Source of the DNA: Vulcanimicrobiota bacterium
Lineage (GTDB): Bacteria > Vulcanimicrobiota > Vulcanimicrobiia > Vulcanimicrobiales > Vulcanimicrobiaceae
Assembly (NCBI GenBank): GCA_003133025.1
Contig: PKZK01000062.1
Span: 201-21,227 of the forward strand
Direction: 5' to 3'
Length of the DNA stretch: 21,027 nucleotides
Part shown: positions 716 through 16,002 of the stretch, one piece after another
How positions within the stretch are numbered: the first letter of the stretch is position 1
Layout: each line of letters opens with the position of its first letter
Program-made: the position numbers and the translations under genes
The notes under the pieces: model-generated
Told to the model about the DNA's origin: nothing
Databases searched by the model: none
Seen by the model: only the letters and a program-made list of their open reading frames with translations

Positions 716-1642
716 GTGGCTCCCGAGCGCCGCAACGCGATAACCCTCGTTGCGGCGCTCGCAGCCGTCTACGTGCTCTGGGGTTCGACGTCGCCCGCGA
801 TGAAGGTCGTGGTGGCGACGGTGCCGCCATGGTATATGGCGGCCTTTCGCTTTCTGGGCGCGGGCTCGCTCTTATTTCTCTACGCCCGTTTGCGCGGCGC
901 ACCGTCGCCCAGCGTGCGCGAGTGGCGTGGTGCGGCCATCTCGGGGGCGCTGCTCCTCGTCGGCGGCAACGGCCTCTTCGCGTGGTGTCTGCAATACATC
1001 CCGGCGGGCGTCGGCGCGCTCTTCTTCGCCTTGTCGCCGCTGTGGAACGCGCTGATCGGCGCGATCTTTTATCGCGAGCGGCTCGCACCCACGGCGATTG
1101 CCGGCATCGTGCTCGGTTTTGCGGGCATGCTGTACATCGTCTCACCGAGCGGCAACGAACACATGCCGCCGCTCGCTACGGCGCTGGGCATCGTCTCCTC
1201 GATTGCGTGGTCGGCGGGTTCGATGATCCAGCGCCGTTATCGTTCCAACGACGTCGCGCAGATGAGCGGCATGCAGATGCTCGTCGCCTGCGCGATCTTG
1301 CTGGTGATGGCAGTCGTCGGCGGCGAGCGGCTGCACGTCGACCAATTCACGCCGGCCGCGATCGGGGGCATCGTCTTTCTCGTGATCGGCGGCAGTCTGA
1401 TCGCGTTCAGCGCCTTCGTGTGGCTGGCGCGCCACGCATCGACCGTCCTCGCCTCGACCTACTCGTACGTTAACCCCGTCGTGGCCATCGCGATTTCGGT
1501 CGCGCTCTTGCACGAGCCGCTGACGTGGCAGACGATGCTCGGCGCGGGAATCGTGATCGCGGGCGTCGCGTTGATGTTGCTCTCGCCGTCACCCTCGCCC
1601 GCAGCCGCGCGTCTCCGCGCGTTGGAACCCGTCGAGCCTTAG
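716..1642 (+). CDS. EamA/DMT family transporter
   Basis: 308 aa with about 10 hydrophobic segments. Motifs VYVLWGST, MAAFRF and STYSYVNPVVA are typical of EamA (YedA-like) proteins. Starts 10 nt after the lon stop. Confidence 0.92.
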   Translation: MAPERRNAITLVAALAAVYVLWGSTSPAMKVVVATVPPWYMAAFRFLGAGSLLFLYARLRGAPSPSVREWRGAAISGALLLVGGNGLFAWCLQYIPAGVGALFFALSPLWNALIGAIFYRERLAPTAIAGIVLGFAGMLYIVSPSGNEHMPPLATALGIVSSIAWSAGSMIQRRYRSNDVAQMSGMQMLVACAILLVMAVVGGERLHVDQFTPAAIGGIVFLVIGGSLIAFSAFVWLARHASTVLASTYSYVNPVVAIAISVALLHEPLTWQTMLGAGIVIAGVALMLLSPSPSPAAARLRALEPVEP

Positions 1643-4600
1643 GCGCCGATCAAGACGAAGCCGGCCCAGAGCCACGGAACGTCGGAACCGAAGTCGTGAA
1701 TCACGTCGGCGCGAACGTCGGCTTGCGCGAGTTTGAGCGCCTCGTGCTTCTCTTTGCCCGAGAGCAGATAACCGTAGAAGTCGCGCATTAGCTCCTCGGT
1801 ATACGAGTCGTCGACTTTCCAAAGCGAGACGAGCATCGAGCGCGCGCCGGCCTCGTGGAAGGCGCGCGTCAAGCCGAAGACGCCTTCGCCGAAGCGCACG
1901 TCGCCGAGCCCCGTGCCGCACGCGCTGAGCACCACGAGGTCGGTGCCGAAGAGGTCGAGACCGGTCGCTTCGAGGCCGGTGAAGACGCCGTTCTCGACGC
2001 TCGTCGAGGCCTTGCCGTCGGCCCACAGCCGGTCGGCTCCGGCGAAGAGTAAACCCGACCGGGTCAACGCGTCGCGCGGATCCGCGCTCCACGTTTCGTC
2101 CGAGGCCGGCACGTAGAAGCCGTGCGTCGCGATATGCAGGATCGAGGGATGGTGAATGTTCTTGAGTTGTTCTTCCAGCGCGAGCGGCCCGACGTATTTG
2201 CGCACGTCGGAGAAACCATGCCGGCTCAGGAGCGCGGCGACATCGTCCGCTTCCGCGCGCGTATAACCGAGCGACGGGACGAAGGTGCCGCGCGGACCCG
2301 CGCTGCGTAGCGTCTCGCTCGACCCAACGGCTTGGTCTCCCTCCGCGAGGGCTCTGCCGCTGAGTGCCGCGCGTTGAGCAGACTCGCTGAGGTCGAAGCG
2401 CGGGTCGCCGATGACCACGGCGTCGCGCGCGCTCGGCGCGTGCATCGAACCACGCTGGACCAGGTCCTTCGTGCTCCAGAGGACGCGCACGTCGTAGGTG
2501 TCGCCGAGCAGCGTGCCGTCCGGGCGTGGAATCGCGTTGAAAGCGACGCGGTTCAGCGAGCCGTCGGGCACGATATAGATGCGTGTCGCATTGCCGAGCT
2601 TGCTCGCGATGGGCAGCCAAACGTCGGCATAGAGGGAGTCCTGGAAATGGTGCCGGTCCGAGTCGATGCCGATGAAGGCGTCGTAGCCCGTCTGCGCCTG
2701 GTCCTCGATCCGCTCCGCATCGCCGAGGTCGACGACGGCGGGCCCGACGGAGTCCGGCGTCAGCACGAGCGCCGCGTAGCGCGGTTTGGTCCACGTCAGC
2801 TCGTTCCACTGATCGAAGCGCACGATCTCGACGGCGGCCTCTCCGCGCCGCAGCGCACGGCGAACGTCTTGCCAACGTGCCGGCCGTTCGCGTTGCGTCG
2901 CGATCGCACCGAGCGCGGCGACGCGTCCGACCAAATCCGTTTCGAGGTCGCCGGCTTGGTGCGATAGCGCTGCGTACTCGGCGTCCAGATGCGGAGCGCC
3001 GCCTTCCGGTTCCGATAACTGCGTGGCCGCGAGTTCCGTGTCGAGCGAGCGCAAGCGCGCGAGTTCGGCCTTGGCCCGCGCGTCGCCCGAGGAAAGCACC
3101 TTCGCACGAACCGACTCCATGCTCTCGGCGACGAGGCCGCGGGTGCGTAGCACGACATCGTACATGTCGCCGCCGAGTTGTGGTTCGCGCGCGGCGTTCG
3201 CCAAGACGGCGCTGTAGAAGCGTTCGTAAACGGGCTCGAGCGCCTCGAGGTGGGCTAGGCGTTCGGACTCGTTGGAGAAGGGCAGCGAAGCTTCGATTTG
3301 GGATTGCACGGTCCCGAGCGCGCTCTGATAGTCGGCCCGCGCGGCCCGAACCTTGCCGTTGCGAAACTCTTCCCAGGCCGCAACTTCCACGATGAACTCA
3401 CCGTACAGCGAGTTCGTTCCCAAGAGCGTGTCGGCGACGTGCCGCGCTGCGACCGTCTCGGCTTCGGCCTGATCGAGTTTCTGCTCGAGAAGCAAGACCC
3501 GTCCGAGCACCAGATGTAACGACGACGAGTCGTACGCGGGTTGCTTGCGGGTCGCGTCGAGCGCTGCCCGCGCGTCGGTTTCGGCGGCGGCGTAATCCTT
3601 ATTCCGTTCATCGATGCTTTCCAGCCGGAGCCAGATGAGTGCGAGCGTGCCGACGTCGTCGCTGTTCTGGTCGGCGATTGCGAGGGCCGTGCGGTACACG
3701 GCCTTCGCGGTGGCAAGCGAATCGTCGGTGCGTTCGCTCGCGTAGAGCTTGCCGATGTCGGAAAGAAGCGAGACCAGCGACATGTCCGCGCGATGGTAGC
3801 GCTTGATGGTGATGCGCCAGCCGCCGTCCGGCTTGTCGGTCACGGCGAGGTCGTTCCGGCCGTAGAGCGCGATGGATATGTCGAGTGCCTTGCGGATGTA
3901 CTTGTAGGCGCGCAAGCGGCCGTCGGAATCGCCTTGCATCTCGGCGCGGGCGAGGTGGCGATACGAGTCGGCGACCAGGGCGTCGTTCGGGCCAAACATT
4001 TTCAAGCGCATGTCCAGCGCCGTCTGATAGTTCTCGATGGCTTTGTCCGGGCGGTCCTCATCGAGATACGCCAAGCCCAGCCGGTCGTAGGGTGCGGAGA
4101 GGAAGATCAAGTCGCCGGGAAAAGCGGCTTGCCGCAGCGCGAGAGCGCGACCGTACTCGCGCTCCGCAGCGGCCGCGTTGCCCAGTTCGTCGTCGACGTC
4201 GGCGACGTCGATCAGCGCGGCCGAGACGCGTCCCGGGTGGAAGGGCTTGAGCCCGCTTGCGATCGACAGTTCCAAATTGTAATAGAAGCGCGCTTGGGGA
4301 TAGGCGGTTTCCGTCTCGTACAGGTAGCCCAACGCCGCATACGCCGAGGCAACGGAAAGGCTGTGCTCGCCGAAGGTCGCGCGGTTCACGCGCAGGACGT
4401 CGCGTATCGAGCGTTCGGCTTCGGCATACTCGTGCACGTCGACTTGAGCCCAGAAGAGATTCTGCATGCTATTGGCCCACTCGTGCGCGTTGCGCCCGTA
4501 GAACGGCGTGTCGATGTCCACCGCCGCCTGCGCGGTTACCAGCGCCAAACGGTAGTCGTGAAAGCGTTCGAAAACGTCGGTGAGCGTGTTCAGGTCGTCG

Positions 4601-5448
4601 GTGACGCCTTCGTGGTCGCGCCCGAAACGCACCAACTCGGCCAGCCCCGCGCGGGCGCGGGCCAACGCGGCCTCGGAGTGATCGGTGTGATACGCTTGCG
4701 CGGCGCCTTCGAGTTCCTGGGCCAAAGCCGCGAGGCCGGGCGCGTTGCCGATCTCCTGGCGGATTGCGGTGAACGCGGTCGCGATCGCGCGCTCGTCGTC
4801 GCGCTGGTATTCGTACTCGCCCGTTAAGCGCTGCAGGATGCGCACGATCAAAGCGTTGCCGGGCGGATACACCGCTTGCGCTTCGACGAGCGCGAGGTTC
4901 ATCGCGCGGCGCGCGGCGGCGTAGTCGCCCAGCGCGTCGAGGTCTGAGCCCAGTTCCAAATCGATTCGGGCCAAGTCGCCGCGATACCGCGCGCCGCCGG
5001 CCGCTGCAACGTTCCGCGCACTTTCGAACTCGTGCCGCGCCTGCGCATAATGCATGCCGGTCTCGTCGGCGATCGCTTCGCCGTCGAGGTAGCGTGCCAA
5101 GCGCGGATCGCCCGCCGGATAGGCGCGACGGGCGCGCGCGAGCGCCGTTCGGTAATCGACCGCAGCGCCGTCCTCGTCGCCGTGGAGGTAGCGTTCGTCG
5201 GCGATTTGCTCGAGCAGCCGGGCCTGCGTCGCGACGTCGCTCGCGGGAGTCAGGGCCAAGGCCTTGCGAAAATAGTTCATCGCTTCGAGCGCGCGACGCG
5301 CGAGCGCCTCGCAGGAGCCCGCCCGCTCGAAAGCAGTCGTGCTCGCGACCGCAGGAGCACAAGCATCCACGGCTGCGGCTACCGCTATAGGCGCTAGGCT
5401 CATCGGTATTGCAAATGCGCAGCCGAGCAGGAAGCGATGTACGTGCAC
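1639..5448 (-). CDS. TPR-repeat CHAT-domain (caspase-like/separase-related) protease with predicted N-terminal signal peptide
   Basis: C-terminal CHAT motifs IYIVPDGSLNRVAF, LHIATHGF (His codon 2122-2124), LVVLSACGTG (Cys codon 1918-1920), GLTRAFHEAGA, SLWKVDD and WAGFVLIG. Many kinesin-light-chain-like TPRs. Start chosen at GTG 5448 (GGAG 9 nt upstream, followed by hydrophobic FLLGCAFAIPMSLAPIAVAAA) rather than 5586. Confidence 0.9.
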   Translation of the reverse strand: MHVHRFLLGCAFAIPMSLAPIAVAAAVDACAPAVASTTAFERAGSCEALARRALEAMNYFRKALALTPASDVATQARLLEQIADERYLHGDEDGAAVDYRTALARARRAYPAGDPRLARYLDGEAIADETGMHYAQARHEFESARNVAAAGGARYRGDLARIDLELGSDLDALGDYAAARRAMNLALVEAQAVYPPGNALIVRILQRLTGEYEYQRDDERAIATAFTAIRQEIGNAPGLAALAQELEGAAQAYHTDHSEAALARARAGLAELVRFGRDHEGVTDDLNTLTDVFERFHDYRLALVTAQAAVDIDTPFYGRNAHEWANSMQNLFWAQVDVHEYAEAERSIRDVLRVNRATFGEHSLSVASAYAALGYLYETETAYPQARFYYNLELSIASGLKPFHPGRVSAALIDVADVDDELGNAAAAEREYGRALALRQAAFPGDLIFLSAPYDRLGLAYLDEDRPDKAIENYQTALDMRLKMFGPNDALVADSYRHLARAEMQGDSDGRLRAYKYIRKALDISIALYGRNDLAVTDKPDGGWRITIKRYHRADMSLVSLLSDIGKLYASERTDDSLATAKAVYRTALAIADQNSDDVGTLALIWLRLESIDERNKDYAAAETDARAALDATRKQPAYDSSSLHLVLGRVLLLEQKLDQAEAETVAARHVADTLLGTNSLYGEFIVEVAAWEEFRNGKVRAARADYQSALGTVQSQIEASLPFSNESERLAHLEALEPVYERFYSAVLANAAREPQLGGDMYDVVLRTRGLVAESMESVRAKVLSSGDARAKAELARLRSLDTELAATQLSEPEGGAPHLDAEYAALSHQAGDLETDLVGRVAALGAIATQRERPARWQDVRRALRRGEAAVEIVRFDQWNELTWTKPRYAALVLTPDSVGPAVVDLGDAERIEDQAQTGYDAFIGIDSDRHHFQDSLYADVWLPIASKLGNATRIYIVPDGSLNRVAFNAIPRPDGTLLGDTYDVRVLWSTKDLVQRGSMHAPSARDAVVIGDPRFDLSESAQRAALSGRALAEGDQAVGSSETLRSAGPRGTFVPSLGYTRAEADDVAALLSRHGFSDVRKYVGPLALEEQLKNIHHPSILHIATHGFYVPASDETWSADPRDALTRSGLLFAGADRLWADGKASTSVENGVFTGLEATGLDLFGTDLVVLSACGTGLGDVRFGEGVFGLTRAFHEAGARSMLVSLWKVDDSYTEELMRDFYGYLLSGKEKHEALKLAQADVRADVIHDFGSDVPWLWAGFVLIGA

Positions 5449-5578
5449 GGGGGAAGTCTCCGGTCTGCCGGGGCGCTTCGGCTTCCACCCGCTCGCAGCT
5501 CGCTCCTCGACGTTTTCCGAAGGGCACCATTCCGGACGGAGGGAAGTTGGCGGCCCGGCTATTCTGGGAGGCTCGTCC

Positions 5579-6442
5579 GTGAACATCGCGCGTGCGCTTT
5601 CTTTGGTCGCTCTCGCTGCCGCTGCGGCCGCCGGCGTCGGCGCCGCGGTGGTGGTGGAAGCGCGCGCCGATACGCCCGTCGTCGCGAACGTGCTCGCCGT
5701 GCACGGTCATTGGACGCTCAACGGTGGCGGCGAGATCACCGGCAGCACGGATTTGCCCGGCGGGGCCGTGATCCAGCCACAAGCCGGCGCGAAGCCGGAT
5801 AGCTCGTGGAAGATCATCCTGATGTTGCGCGGCACCGGCCAGTTGATCGGCTGCAAGAAGTACGACGGCACGTGCCGGCTGCCCATTCACCTGCCGCAGA
5901 GCGCAGGTGGAGACCCGACGATGAATCTCGCCGATAACATCGCTCACGCCATTTCGATCTCGAGCGACCACCGCCGCTTCTTGCCCAACCACGTGCGTTC
6001 TGCGCTCCGCGGCGGCGCAGTTCTCACCGAGCGCGTGGTCACGCTCGACGGTACGAAACTCGATCCGAACGCGTTCGTTGCCGGCGCTCCCGCCGGAACG
6101 TACAAGTTACGCTTGCGCGACATCGATCCGGCGCATGCGCCTACCGACGACATTTTCGTGAAGTTCGTCTGGGATCAGAACCACACCGCACCCGTCGAGG
6201 TCGGCGAGTTGAAGCCGGGCGTCTACGAAGTCCAACTCTTCGACGGCTCGGGTTCCTATCCGCGGACCGATCCGGCGTGGCTCGGCATCGTCGCACACGG
6301 CGACTACGCCGCAGCCGATGCTCGCTTCACCTCGGTTCGCACGCTGGTCGCTTCATGGGGACCCGATGCCGACCCGTTCGTCGTCGAACGCTTTCTGAGG
6401 GCTGGGCTCGAATACGTGGTCGACGGGGACGTAACTCGTTGA
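5579..6442 (+). CDS. Hypothetical secreted protein, 287 aa (beta-rich; partner of the CHAT/CHASE2 module)
   Basis: GTG at 5579 is preceded by GGAGG at 7 nt spacing. Signal-like N-terminus (NIARALSLVALAAAAAAGVGAAVVVEARA-D), a Cys pair (GCKKYDGTC), and a TTGA overlap with the downstream gene. Confidence 0.8.
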   Translation: MNIARALSLVALAAAAAAGVGAAVVVEARADTPVVANVLAVHGHWTLNGGGEITGSTDLPGGAVIQPQAGAKPDSSWKIILMLRGTGQLIGCKKYDGTCRLPIHLPQSAGGDPTMNLADNIAHAISISSDHRRFLPNHVRSALRGGAVLTERVVTLDGTKLDPNAFVAGAPAGTYKLRLRDIDPAHAPTDDIFVKFVWDQNHTAPVEVGELKPGVYEVQLFDGSGSYPRTDPAWLGIVAHGDYAAADARFTSVRTLVASWGPDADPFVVERFLRAGLEYVVDGDVTR

Positions 6443-7842
6443 ATGGCGGATTGCTCCCCCGCCTCATTCGCGGCATTCCCTACATCTTGGCTGCGATCGT
6501 CACCACGATCGTGCTCGAACGTTTTGGTCTATTCGCCATCGTCGACACGCGCATGCTCGATGCATTTCTGCTCACCGCGAGCGCGCGCCATGGCGATCCC
6601 TTCGCGGGACAGGTGTTTCCGCACGTCACGATCGTCGGCATCGATAACGAACTCTACAACGACAAGAACCGATTCGATAGTAAGAGTCCGCTCGACCCAA
6701 AGATCGTCGCCGAGCTGATTGCCGACGTCGAGTCGGAGGGGCCGCGCGTCGTCGGCGTCGACATCGATACCACGAGCGAGCTCTACGCAACCAGGGACGC
6801 CAAGACCAAGCAGCTTCCGTTCGTGCCCCATGCCGACTGGGCGCCGATCGTGTGGACCGCGTCCGGCACCTTCGACGACGACCTCTGCCTGACCGGGCGG
6901 GATCCGGTGCTCGGCGGCGTACGCGATCTCTTACGCCCGAAGGACAGCGTGGGAATCGACGATCTCCCGAGCGACGACGACGGCCAACTCCGGCATTATC
7001 AGCGCGCCTTCGCGTCCGCCGGCAGCGCACATTGCAGCGAGACGGCCGTCGCCGCGCCCACCGCCTGGTCGTTCGTCAGCGCGGTCGTGCACGCGTACTG
7101 CAGCGCCGGTAGCAACGATTGTACGCCCGAGATACGGTCGGCGCCCGCGACGGCGGAACGCCTGTTGATCGATTTTCGCGGCGAGTGCGTCGCCGCAACG
7201 TCTTCGGATTGCATCGCTCGCGCCGCACCAAAGAACGACAATACCCTCAGCAAGCCGCACGTCTACGTTCCCGCGAGCCTCGTGCTCGATGCGGGCAAAG
7301 GAGCAAAACTCGGTTTGGCCGACCGCGTCGTTTTGATCGGCGGCTTCTACGATGCGGGACGCGATGCCAAAACGACGTCGTTCGGCGAACGCCAAGGCGT
7401 GGAGCTTCTTGCGCGCGCGATCGAGACCGAACTCGGCGGCGGCGGTGTGCGCGACACGCCCCTGTGGGCAGCAGTGCTCTTCGATGTGGTCGTCGGCATT
7501 TTGCTGATCTACGTCGGCTATCGCTTCACGCTGTGGCCTGCGCTCGGCATCACCGTCGCGCTCTTTCCGGTCACCATCCTGCTCAGCAGCGTCCTGGCCT
7601 TCATGAAGCTCGGACACTGGGTCAGCATCGCCCCGATTTTCTTCGGGATGGCGTTACACACGGCGTTCGAAGATGCCATCGAGAGCGCCGAACTCCGTCG
7701 CGAACGCGAATCCGAAGCGCGGCACCCGGTCGAAACTGCGCCTGACGCTGCCGAAGAAGCAGCCGTTGCACCGACTCCAGCGCAACTGGCCGCAACGCCG
7801 CAGGCTGCGCCGACCCCGTCGCCCCCGCCGTCAGCGCCTTGA
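6439..7842 (+). CDS. CHASE2 sensor domain membrane protein lacking a recognisable cytoplasmic effector domain
   Basis: N-terminal TM; CHASE2 motifs VTIVGID, GPRVVGVDID, DDDGQLRH, LADRVVLIG, GERQGVELLARAIET; three C-terminal TM helices; only about 55 aa of Glu/Ala/Pro-rich tail. TTG start overlaps the upstream TGA. Confidence 0.85.
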   Translation: MNGGLLPRLIRGIPYILAAIVTTIVLERFGLFAIVDTRMLDAFLLTASARHGDPFAGQVFPHVTIVGIDNELYNDKNRFDSKSPLDPKIVAELIADVESEGPRVVGVDIDTTSELYATRDAKTKQLPFVPHADWAPIVWTASGTFDDDLCLTGRDPVLGGVRDLLRPKDSVGIDDLPSDDDGQLRHYQRAFASAGSAHCSETAVAAPTAWSFVSAVVHAYCSAGSNDCTPEIRSAPATAERLLIDFRGECVAATSSDCIARAAPKNDNTLSKPHVYVPASLVLDAGKGAKLGLADRVVLIGGFYDAGRDAKTTSFGERQGVELLARAIETELGGGGVRDTPLWAAVLFDVVVGILLIYVGYRFTLWPALGITVALFPVTILLSSVLAFMKLGHWVSIAPIFFGMALHTAFEDAIESAELRRERESEARHPVETAPDAAEEAAVAPTPAQLAATPQAAPTPSPPPSAP

Positions 7843-14640: not shown

Positions 14641-16002
14641 GTGGAGGAGAGTTTCGTTCGTCCCCTACGCATCGTGCCGGCTTTCGTGTTGTCGTTGGCC
14701 GGTTGCGCGGTACAGCAACCGGTGCAGCATTCGATTCCGGTCGAGTCGGCGCACGTCCCGTTCGTGTTGCCCGCTTCGTTCGACCATCATGCCGCGACCG
14801 GCAAGATCCAGCACGTGGTGATCATCGTGCAAGAGAACCGGAGCTTCGACAACCTCTTTCACGGTTATCCGGGCGCCGATACCGTTTCGAGCGGGCTCGA
14901 CTCGAACAATCAAGTCATCCGGCTCCAGCCGGTCGGCCTCGAAGATCGGTACGTCCTCGATCATTCCGCCGCTGCGATGTTCTCGGCGTGCAACGGCACG
15001 CCGCCCGGTCAGAATTGCACGATGAACGGATTCAACAACGACATTTCGAACGGCGGTCCGGCGAACCCGCAATACGTCTACGTTCCGCACGCGGAGTCGA
15101 AACCGTATTTTGCGCTGGCGAACGAATTCGTGCTGGCCGATCGCATGTTCCAGTCGCACCTCGACGAGAGCTTCGTGTCGCACCAGTACCTCATCGCCGC
15201 GCAGGCCGATTCGGCCGTCGACCTTCCCAAAGCGCTGTGGGGCTGCGACGGCGGGAGCGACGACACCGTCGAGACGATCACGCAAAACAGGACGTACGGA
15301 CCTCAGCTGCAAGCGTGTTTCGACTATATGACCCTGGGCGACGAGCTCGACCACGCAAGGCTCACCTGGCGCTTCTACACGAGTACGATCAACAGCAACG
15401 GCGGCGAATGGTCGGGCTATCAGGCCGTCAGACACATCCGCTACGGTCCCGATTGGGGCACCGACGTCATCACGCCGCAGACCCAGTTCTTCACCGACCT
15501 CGCCGGCGGGAATCTGGCCAACGTCACCTGGATAACGCCGACCTGCGAGACCTCCGACCACGTCAATTGCGGCGGCAAGCTCGGCCCGCAGTGGGTGTCG
15601 ACGCTGGTCAACGCGATCGGCGAGAGCCAGTTTTGGAATACGACGGCGATCTTCGTCATGTGGGACGATTGGGGCGGCCTCTACGATCACGTGCCGCCGC
15701 CCTACGAAGATTACGACGGTCTCGGCTTCCGCGTGCCGCTGCTGATGATTTCACCCTATGCCCGGCAAGGCTCCGTCACGCACGTGCAGTACGAGACGGG
15801 CAGCATCTTGCGCTTCATCGAGGATCGGTACGGATTGAGCCAACTCTCGGCGAGCGACGCGCGCGCCAACGATCCGGCAAACGATCCCGCGGCCTTTGAT
15901 TTCGCGCAGAGTCCGCGCGCGTACCACCGGGTGCACACGCTGTACGCGCCGCAATTTTTCGAGTCGCGGCCGTACGACGGGCGGCCGCCCGACGACGACT
16001 AG
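14641..16002 (+). CDS. Phosphoesterase (phospholipase C/acid phosphatase, PlcH/AcpA-like) lipoprotein
   Basis: KIQHVVIIVQENRSFDNLF, WDDWGGLYDHVPPP, GFRVPLLMISPYA, SILRFIE; lipobox LAGC (Cys22). Exact start uncertain. Confidence 0.9.
   Translation: MEESFVRPLRIVPAFVLSLAGCAVQQPVQHSIPVESAHVPFVLPASFDHHAATGKIQHVVIIVQENRSFDNLFHGYPGADTVSSGLDSNNQVIRLQPVGLEDRYVLDHSAAAMFSACNGTPPGQNCTMNGFNNDISNGGPANPQYVYVPHAESKPYFALANEFVLADRMFQSHLDESFVSHQYLIAAQADSAVDLPKALWGCDGGSDDTVETITQNRTYGPQLQACFDYMTLGDELDHARLTWRFYTSTINSNGGEWSGYQAVRHIRYGPDWGTDVITPQTQFFTDLAGGNLANVTWITPTCETSDHVNCGGKLGPQWVSTLVNAIGESQFWNTTAIFVMWDDWGGLYDHVPPPYEDYDGLGFRVPLLMISPYARQGSVTHVQYETGSILRFIEDRYGLSQLSASDARANDPANDPAAFDFAQSPRAYHRVHTLYAPQFFESRPYDGRPPDDD

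Follow-up and report, generated by a model that had tools for sequence, protein, structure and literature searches.

What could a membrane sensor without an output domain do beside a secreted protein and a protease of caspase-like type that itself appears to be exported? This question is raised by three genes in a 21,027-nucleotide stretch of a Vulcanimicrobiota genome (assembly GCA_003133025.1, contig PKZK01000062.1, positions 201 to 21,227 of the forward strand), hereafter the window, to which all positions refer. On the minus strand lies a TPR-CHAT protease gene (1639..5448; 1269 aa, GTG start at 5448), whose product combines a signal-like N-terminus, a TPR array, and a C-terminal CHAT domain. 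Across a divergent intergenic region of 130 bp (5449..5578), the plus strand carries the gene of protein X (5579..6442; 287 aa, GTG start), a member of an unnamed family with predicted signal peptides, followed by the gene of a CHASE2 membrane protein without an output domain (6439..7842; 467 aa, TTG start). The first-pass annotation had described the three genes, the divergent gap, and the coupling TTGA (6439-6442), where the X stop codon and the TTG that starts the CHASE2 gene share bases, and every reading frame lies where it had been placed.

The trio is a real, recurrent, and unnamed envelope module, its export being predicted. Its kin, the FecR/MtxA-CHASE2 operons and the periplasmic TPR-CHAT protein DdvA, are already known. 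How the module works is a more tentative matter: with a chance that we place slightly below even, X would pair with the output-less CHASE2 protein outside the cytoplasm and be tethered to the membrane in this way, and the clan CD protease, predicted to be exported, would cut X after Arg144, as sequence conservation and a structural model suggest.

Recurrence of the three genes

X is present in 4 of 401 genomes of the window's phylum; in the three besides genome G000, an output-less CHASE2 gene lies directly downstream and a TPR-CHAT gene is adjacent. One locus (L057) comes from a record labeled Vulcanimicrobiaceae. Loci were located with a degenerate DNA pattern, which recovers 51 of 151 known X members and therefore gives a biased sample; it yielded 23 genome and 49 metagenome loci with labels of Acidobacteriota, Gemmatimonadota, Myxococcota, and others, and the X locus recurs in at least four phyla. 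X was found in 74 of 76 loci (L080 and L108 had no X match and were dropped), which represent 42 lineages at 60% identity. CHASE2 adjoins X in 36 of these (directly downstream in 35, convergent in 1), and 4 of the 6 others have less than 200 bp of downstream DNA. A clan CD protease is encoded within 1.7 kb of X in 31 of the 42 lineages, CHAT in 25 and C14 in 6 (some with WD40 repeats), and 10 of the 11 lineages without one have a flank shorter than 1.9 kb. That two different clan CD families fill one slot beside the X-CHASE2 pair supports the proposed cleavage. Lineages G192, G217, G239, G781, and G864 came from profile searches instead of the DNA pattern, and all five (three of them within the 42) have all three genes; in G781 and G864, from a profile search of 301 genomes, X and CHASE2 stand together with a C14 gene.

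The first-pass annotation had staked its three-gene module on homologs lying together in other genomes. The genes do recur together, but the conserved core is X plus CHASE2. The protease slot can be filled by CHAT or by C14 enzymes, whose repeat arrays differ, and 16 of 17 loci of one lineage have no protease next to the pair. The position of the protease also varies (upstream, downstream, convergent, or divergent), and the divergent layout of the window is not conserved. With 3-17 CHAT genes in each genome of 4.8-8.1 Mb, adjacency by chance would be expected at a few percent. Across 18 lineages, whose kin are not independent, identities co-vary with a rho of 0.70 for X-CHASE2, 0.31 for X-CHAT, and 0.34 for CHASE2-CHAT; the stronger co-variation of X with CHASE2 than with CHAT supports a tethered pair served by a separate protease. 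No conserved cytoplasmic partner gene was found among the 64 neighbors scanned.

Protein X and its linker arginine

Protein X matches nothing in Pfam at E<=1 or in NCBIfam at E<=0.1, and a PDB sequence search gave no match either (best E 0.14). A word-based search returned one relative with 66% identity, and an exhaustive search gave a family of 301 clusters at E<=0.001. The alignment used here has 144 rows (the query, the 66% relative, and 142 further members from a list of 149, of which 7 fragments or long sequences were left out), in which all relatives save the close one are 21-34% identical to the query and no Pfam or NCBIfam family is common to the members. A search for fusions among proteins of 626-2000 aa gave just two short unrelated matches and counts as weak evidence. 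The signal peptide first annotated on X fits what the family shows: 110 of 149 relatives have an uncharged hydrophobic stretch within the first 70 residues, compared with 5 of 149 internal windows, signal peptides being judged throughout by this hydropathy test and not by a dedicated predictor. Cys92 and Cys99 are near-invariant (each in 133 of 144 rows) and likely form a disulfide, which is consistent with export.

The most conspicuous residue is Arg144 (6008..6010, plus strand), which is Arg in 138 of 144 rows (Lys in 2, Gln in 3, Gly in 1) and lies in an S-R-G motif, with Ser preceding in 90 and Gly following in 104 rows. An alignment-based model (mean predicted local distance difference test score [pLDDT] 88.6, predicted template modeling score [pTM] 0.84; a single-sequence model reached a pLDDT of only 37.6) predicts, in order, a small beta domain, a helix, a low-confidence linker up to Arg144, an immunoglobulin (Ig)-like domain, and two helices. 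The N-terminal beta domain (residues 32-114; 5672..5920, plus strand) resembles the adhesin retention domain 5IX9 and the front of secreted FecR-family proteins and holds the Cys92/Cys99 pair, and the Ig/fibronectin type III-like domain with the two C-terminal helices spans 6026..6424 (plus strand). The linker is the least confident part of the model, with block means of 54 at mature residues 101-110 and 78 at 111-120.

The best structural match of the first domain is 5IX9 (VIA Z 7.6, root mean square deviation 2.8, 71 of 76 residues aligned), although the tool cautions that a Z below 8 may reflect a common arrangement. This structure is cited in a paper on a Marinomonas adhesin (PMC5550230). 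It is also the template for the LapA retention module, where a flexible region with the LapG site comes next (10.1101/198937), and this order of a 5IX9 fold followed by a linker with a cut site supports the same reading of X. Several comparisons hint at a possible kinship with FecR: FecR proteins are four of the five weak X-profile matches in 201 genomes, and three of them adjoin CHASE2 cyclases; with signal peptides removed, hhalign aligns 45 columns of X to a five-row FecR template at probability 79, where the best among 30 shuffles reaches 0.45; and Atlas neighbors point the same way, as a lead, with template modeling (TM) scores of 0.62-0.67 and a feature score of 0.79. None of the 144 X members matches Pfam FecR (PF04773). 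Foldseek with the X model gave no match at E<=0.001; MtxA ranked third, with a weak similarity (E 4e-3, TM 0.18-0.24) and an Atlas feature score of 0.83. No X member among the 144 matches the MtxA Pfam models (PF24045, PF22433, and PF22121), and an MtxA family search of 201 genomes gave no match, its control being silent too. To judge from the alignment and the model, the simplest reading of a near-invariant arginine that sits in a flexible linker after a retention-like domain is that of a cut site.

The caspase-like protease

Pfam CHAT (PF12770) matches protease residues 939-1269 (1642..2634, minus strand) with an E of 7e-57 and 193.5 bits against a curated cutoff of 24, and TPR matches fall at residues 332-509. 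The His/Cys dyad reported in the first-pass annotation is present as His1109 (2122-2124) and Cys1177 (1918-1920), and both residues, together with Glu1066, are invariant in 26 of 26 CHAT rows. A PDB sequence search with the CHAT domain gave no match. In an hhalign comparison with C14 caspases (probability 36, E 4e-4), Glu1066 falls on their helix Asp, which we take to line the specificity pocket. Characterized non-metazoan C14 proteases prefer Arg or Lys at P1 (PMC5756287; 10.1101/2024.10.24.620036), and this preference, combined with the alignment of Glu1066, supports an arginine-directed cut. In several C14 neighbors, an Arg-Gly or Arg-Asp word lies shortly past the catalytic Cys.

The first-pass annotation also proposed that the protease is exported. 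Its predicted signal peptide (5371..5448, minus strand) has about 26 residues with three alanines at the end and passes the hydropathy test, although the hydrophobic stretch is moderate and contains two prolines. Among neighboring full-length proteases, 23 of 26 pass at the N-terminus, compared with 4 of 171 internal windows; an earlier, laxer heuristic was non-discriminating (23/28 vs 113/163 control open reading frames). The accompanying view that the best-studied CHAT proteases are cytoplasmic needs correction in one respect: a periplasmic TPR-CHAT protein, DdvA, was already known (PMC11506125).

The output-less CHASE2 protein

The CHASE2 domain occupies residues 21-347 of the 467-aa protein (E 3e-20) and is the only family matched. 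It is preceded by one N-terminal hydrophobic segment and followed by C-terminal hydrophobic segments and a short Pro/Ala-rich tail, with no cyclase, kinase, or other output domain in the window's protein, as first annotated. The tail is poorly conserved past its first helix. Beyond the window, too, an output domain is lacking: the stretch after the CHASE2 domain counts 65-162 residues in all 32 lineages with a complete CHASE2 protein, and an output domain fits in none of them. The remaining X-adjacent CHASE2 genes are one that is split (L046) and three cut by contig ends. A search of plasmids with the CHASE2 protein gave no match. In a quick tree of 80 CHASE2 domains, the 34 X-adjacent ones form one side of a branch (Shimodaira-Hasegawa-like approximate likelihood ratio test [SH-aLRT] 94, just below the starred level), 9 DUF928-adjacent ones form a separate branch (SH-aLRT 99), and long output-bearing CHASE2 proteins lie apart too. 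The four copies from the window's family show no supported grouping; because of this and of the patchy spread, the X-CHASE2 module may be mobile. At L043 (102-12456), in G192, the trio lies about 6 kb from an integrase-like gene (by eye), which suggests a mobile element.

These results bear on the possibility that the protease is cytoplasmic, or that chance brought the genes together and the CHASE2 gene is what a truncation left behind. We regard this as very improbable. It could draw on the simplicity of the hydropathy test, the moderate, proline-containing stretch of the window's protease, and the split CHASE2 gene at L046; it is opposed by the recurrence across phyla, the N-terminal stretch shared by most neighboring proteases but few internal windows, and the branch of the quick tree that sets the X-adjacent CHASE2 domains apart.

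The lack of an output domain could also have been made good by a heterodimer with an output-bearing CHASE2 paralog. Output-less CHASE2 matches are the only ones in G217 (one), G239 (one), and G000 (two; 80% complete), and long CHASE2 proteins are present in G192 and G402. Because G217 (97% complete) and G239 (90%) have no second CHASE2 match, signaling through such a paralog is disfavored.

A pair without output might instead hold the protease back. In this reading, which we consider somewhat unlikely, X-CHASE2 would be a membrane-anchored restraint, the Arg loop of X would act as a bait or pseudo-substrate that keeps the exported protease inactive, and the true targets would be host envelope or invader proteins. 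It needs no cytoplasmic output and accounts both for the missing output domain in all 32 complete proteins and for G217 and G239, where no other CHASE2 is matched; LapD-LapG is a precedent for a membrane receptor that holds a periplasmic protease; and pairs without a protease nearby could guard against proteases encoded elsewhere. A tight inhibitor, however, would be expected to track its enzyme, whereas one X family meets CHAT, divergent CHAT, and C14, and X tracks CHASE2 more than CHAT.

Parallel DUF928 neighborhoods

Cyanobacterial neighborhoods of CHAT, CHASE2, and DUF928 genes, mentioned in the first-pass annotation, were confirmed in plasmid loci. In the 10 loci fetched of 18 plasmid hits, a CHASE2 gene stands beside DUF928 in 7 and CHAT is near in 8 (6 annotated and 2 more found by profile); CHASE2-DUF928 adjacency is also mentioned in PMC5587647. 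An arginine lies in a Gly/Ala-rich linker just before the DUF928 domain in 12 of 12 aligned rows, and this conservation in a parallel neighborhood supports the proposed cleavage of X. Like the X loci, these loci encode a small signal-bearing protein with an Arg linker, CHASE2 beside it, and CHAT near, and some of the CHASE2 proteins are short. Unlike X, DUF928 proteins have no N-terminal FecR-like domain, the two families have no profile match to each other, and the CHASE2 partners of DUF928, on their separate branch, include several with a long N-terminal extension or a cyclase.

Membership of X itself in DUF928 (PF06051) was considered and rejected: none of the 144 members has a Pfam match to it at E<=0.05, and hhalign gives a probability of 0.2 against the 12-row alignment, below shuffles. 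On a possible common fold of the Ig and helical part, an Atlas structure row for X with 22% DUF928 members has a TM of 0.40. Two plasmid loci have features of their own. A DUF928 protein on a Planktothrix plasmid (L151, 5926-6771) has a second copy of the linker motif at its C-terminal end, with Arg as the last residue, and on a Calothrix plasmid (L157, 3420-10963), a short CHASE2 gene with DUF928 and a convergent CHAT has a TIR-domain gene directly upstream, which hints at a link to defense.

Proposed mechanism and its alternatives

In the mechanism that we tentatively prefer, X and CHASE2 would be held together at the membrane, outside the cytoplasm, with X binding CHASE2 through its FecR-N-like domain. 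Triggering of the TPR array would render the predicted-exported caspase-like protease active; the nature of the trigger is a guess by analogy, either envelope stress or an invader protein. The protease would be Arg-specific and cut X after Arg144, which would separate the N-terminal domain of X from the Ig-helix half. Cut X might then alter the state of the CHASE2 membrane bundle, or the released Ig-helix half might itself be the signal.

Several observations weigh against this proposal. (i) A role in binding would account for the conserved Arg144 just as well. An arginine is also kept by the FecR-type proteins that partner CHASE2 cyclases (G-x-R-G-T in 5 of 5 rows), and in the X family Arg144 gives way to Gln in three rows and to Gly in one. 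(ii) Not every X has a protease at hand: lineage L049 has X alone despite long flanks, and in the Pyrinomonadaceae-rich lineage (lineage 4) whose loci mostly have no adjacent protease, seven of the 16 protease-less ones have more than 6 kb on both sides, several lie behind an RND efflux operon, and inspected members keep Arg144. One genome with a protease-less pair was checked and has 16 CHAT matches elsewhere. (iii) The Asp before the catalytic Cys, present in C14 neighbors, is missing from the X-neighbor CHATs; in the available part of the SAVED-CHAT preprint (10.1101/2023.06.23.546230) no cleavage site for CHAT was found, and for DdvA cleavage is proposed, CHAT activity not having been triggered experimentally (PMC11506125). 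(iv) The window locus encodes no output step.

Some of these points would fit a self-contained sensor of the FecR- or MtxA-CHASE2 type, in which Arg144 would be a contact residue, the short CHASE2 tail would signal through a cytoplasmic partner, and the protease would be loosely coupled and have other substrates. Secreted FecR stands beside CHASE2 cyclases with no protease match within the 14-15 kb fetched (L143, L144, and L146), MtxA precedes a CHASE2 cyclase, and the X-CHASE2 pair persists protease-less in one large lineage. We nevertheless judge it quite unlikely, as it leaves the nearby protease from two clan CD families in 31 of 42 lineages to be explained, and neither the neighbor scan, with no conserved cytoplasmic partner gene, nor the short, poorly conserved tail favors it.

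Cleavage of X could also be part of something larger, although we regard the following as a speculation with little probability. Interchangeable exported sensor-proteases (TPR-CHAT, WD40-caspase, and others) would detect an invader or envelope damage and cut a constant secreted substrate at Arg, thereby unlocking the CHASE2 bundle as an effector, for example in membrane permeabilization or dormancy. If true, this envelope caspase pathway would be a defense system wholly outside the cytoplasm; CHASE2 domains, whose ligand was stated to be unknown in 2016 (PMC5192318), would gain a first defined ligand class, processed proteins, and DUF928 loci would work likewise. The prediction of Arg-linker cleavage in our preferred mechanism extends to DUF928 too. 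DdvA is the only studied periplasmic TPR-CHAT found in the literature searched and has neither a known trigger nor a proven substrate; with protein X as candidate substrate and Arg144 as the one residue in question, the module makes both CHASE2 sensing and the substrates of TPR-CHAT proteins testable.

Genomic setting

Both divergent genes are preceded by Shine-Dalgarno-like words: GGAG lies 9 bases upstream of the protease GTG (5448, minus strand), and GGGAGG precedes the start codon of X. The flanking genes belong to the EamA, YCII, and AIRS families, and the stop codons of the EamA (plus) and CHAT (minus) genes overlap at 1639-1642, leaving no space for a terminator between them. No composition anomaly was found (GC 0.63-0.68 in the module vs 0.62-0.70 in the window), and an Rfam search gave no match. 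Elsewhere in the window, a 453-aa frame with a lipoprotein-like N-terminus (14641-16002), presumably phosphoesterase-like, lies on the opposite strand between pheS-like and pheT-like frames.

Other loci differ in their surroundings. In a Pyrinomonadales lineage (L047, L052, L062, L063, and L077), the X-CHASE2 pair, mostly protease-less, stands directly behind an RND efflux operon, and in L077, X flanks CHASE2 on both sides. At L112 (4030-8525), trypsin-like and subtilase genes lie downstream of the CHAT-X-CHASE2 trio. Genome G000, that of the window, has a second cluster (C67:2-12946; L001, L005, and L008) with two CHAT genes and a second output-less CHASE2 gene but no X gene; one of the CHAT frames (1636 aa) has a signal-like N-terminus as well as TPR-like repeats, and the CHASE2 protein of the cluster branches outside the X-adjacent group. 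The cluster also holds a trypsin-like gene (by eye) and an 863-aa frame with a signal-like N-terminus (C67:7709-10300), which over 856 residues shares 58.5% identity with a gene at L114:5262-8015 that has no Pfam match. Because the L114 homolog adjoins an X-CHASE2 pair, the two cluster types are linked.

Comparison with known systems

In the literature searched, which left most subscription papers and supplements outside its scope, no description of an X-CHASE2-protease trio was found; the supplements of PMC8195603 could list such neighborhoods. Caspases that probably carry signal peptides have been described, as have CHASE2 fusions whose caspase part is cytoplasmic (PMC3501461 and PMC8195603).

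The first domain of X has its closest counterpart in the LapA-LapG system (10.1101/198937), in which a domain of the 5IX9 fold likewise stands at the N-terminus, ahead of a flexible linker where a periplasmic protease cuts at a conserved site, the site in X being proposed. LapA, however, is a giant type I-secreted RTX adhesin with a dialanine cut site and cyclic di-GMP control, whereas X has 287 aa, a signal-like N-terminus, and an Arg motif; between the two proteins, the fold of the first domain is the shared part.

The protease is most readily compared with DdvA-DdvS of Myxococcus xanthus (PMC11506125), where a periplasmic TPR-CHAT with a His-Cys dyad is proposed to respond to a signal by cleaving a flexible linker. 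DdvA is a single anti-sigma factor that spans the membrane, and its output is defined as the release of sigma; the protease considered here is a protein of its own that begins with a signal-like N-terminus and can be replaced by C14. The window's protease has no cytoplasmic zinc anti-sigma domain of the DdvA type and opens with its own hydrophobic stretch, and no sigma factor recurs among the neighbors scanned, which in the window are the EamA, YCII, and AIRS flanks.

For the X-CHASE2 pair, the nearest counterparts are operons where the gene of a secreted protein immediately precedes that of a CHASE2 membrane protein. In the FecR-CHASE2 operons of Burkholderia (BiofilmReg; PMC5192318), whose available text mentions neither caspase nor CHAT, the front end of the FecR-family protein resembles the first domain of X. 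The CHASE2 proteins of BiofilmReg and MtxA differ from that of the window in having an output domain, a kinase or a cyclase. Similarly, mtxA directly precedes the gene of its CHASE2 cyclase (PMC4439547), as X precedes CHASE2 here, and MtxA has an Ig-like and helical C-terminal half, as the model predicts for X, behind a trypsin-sensitive linker.

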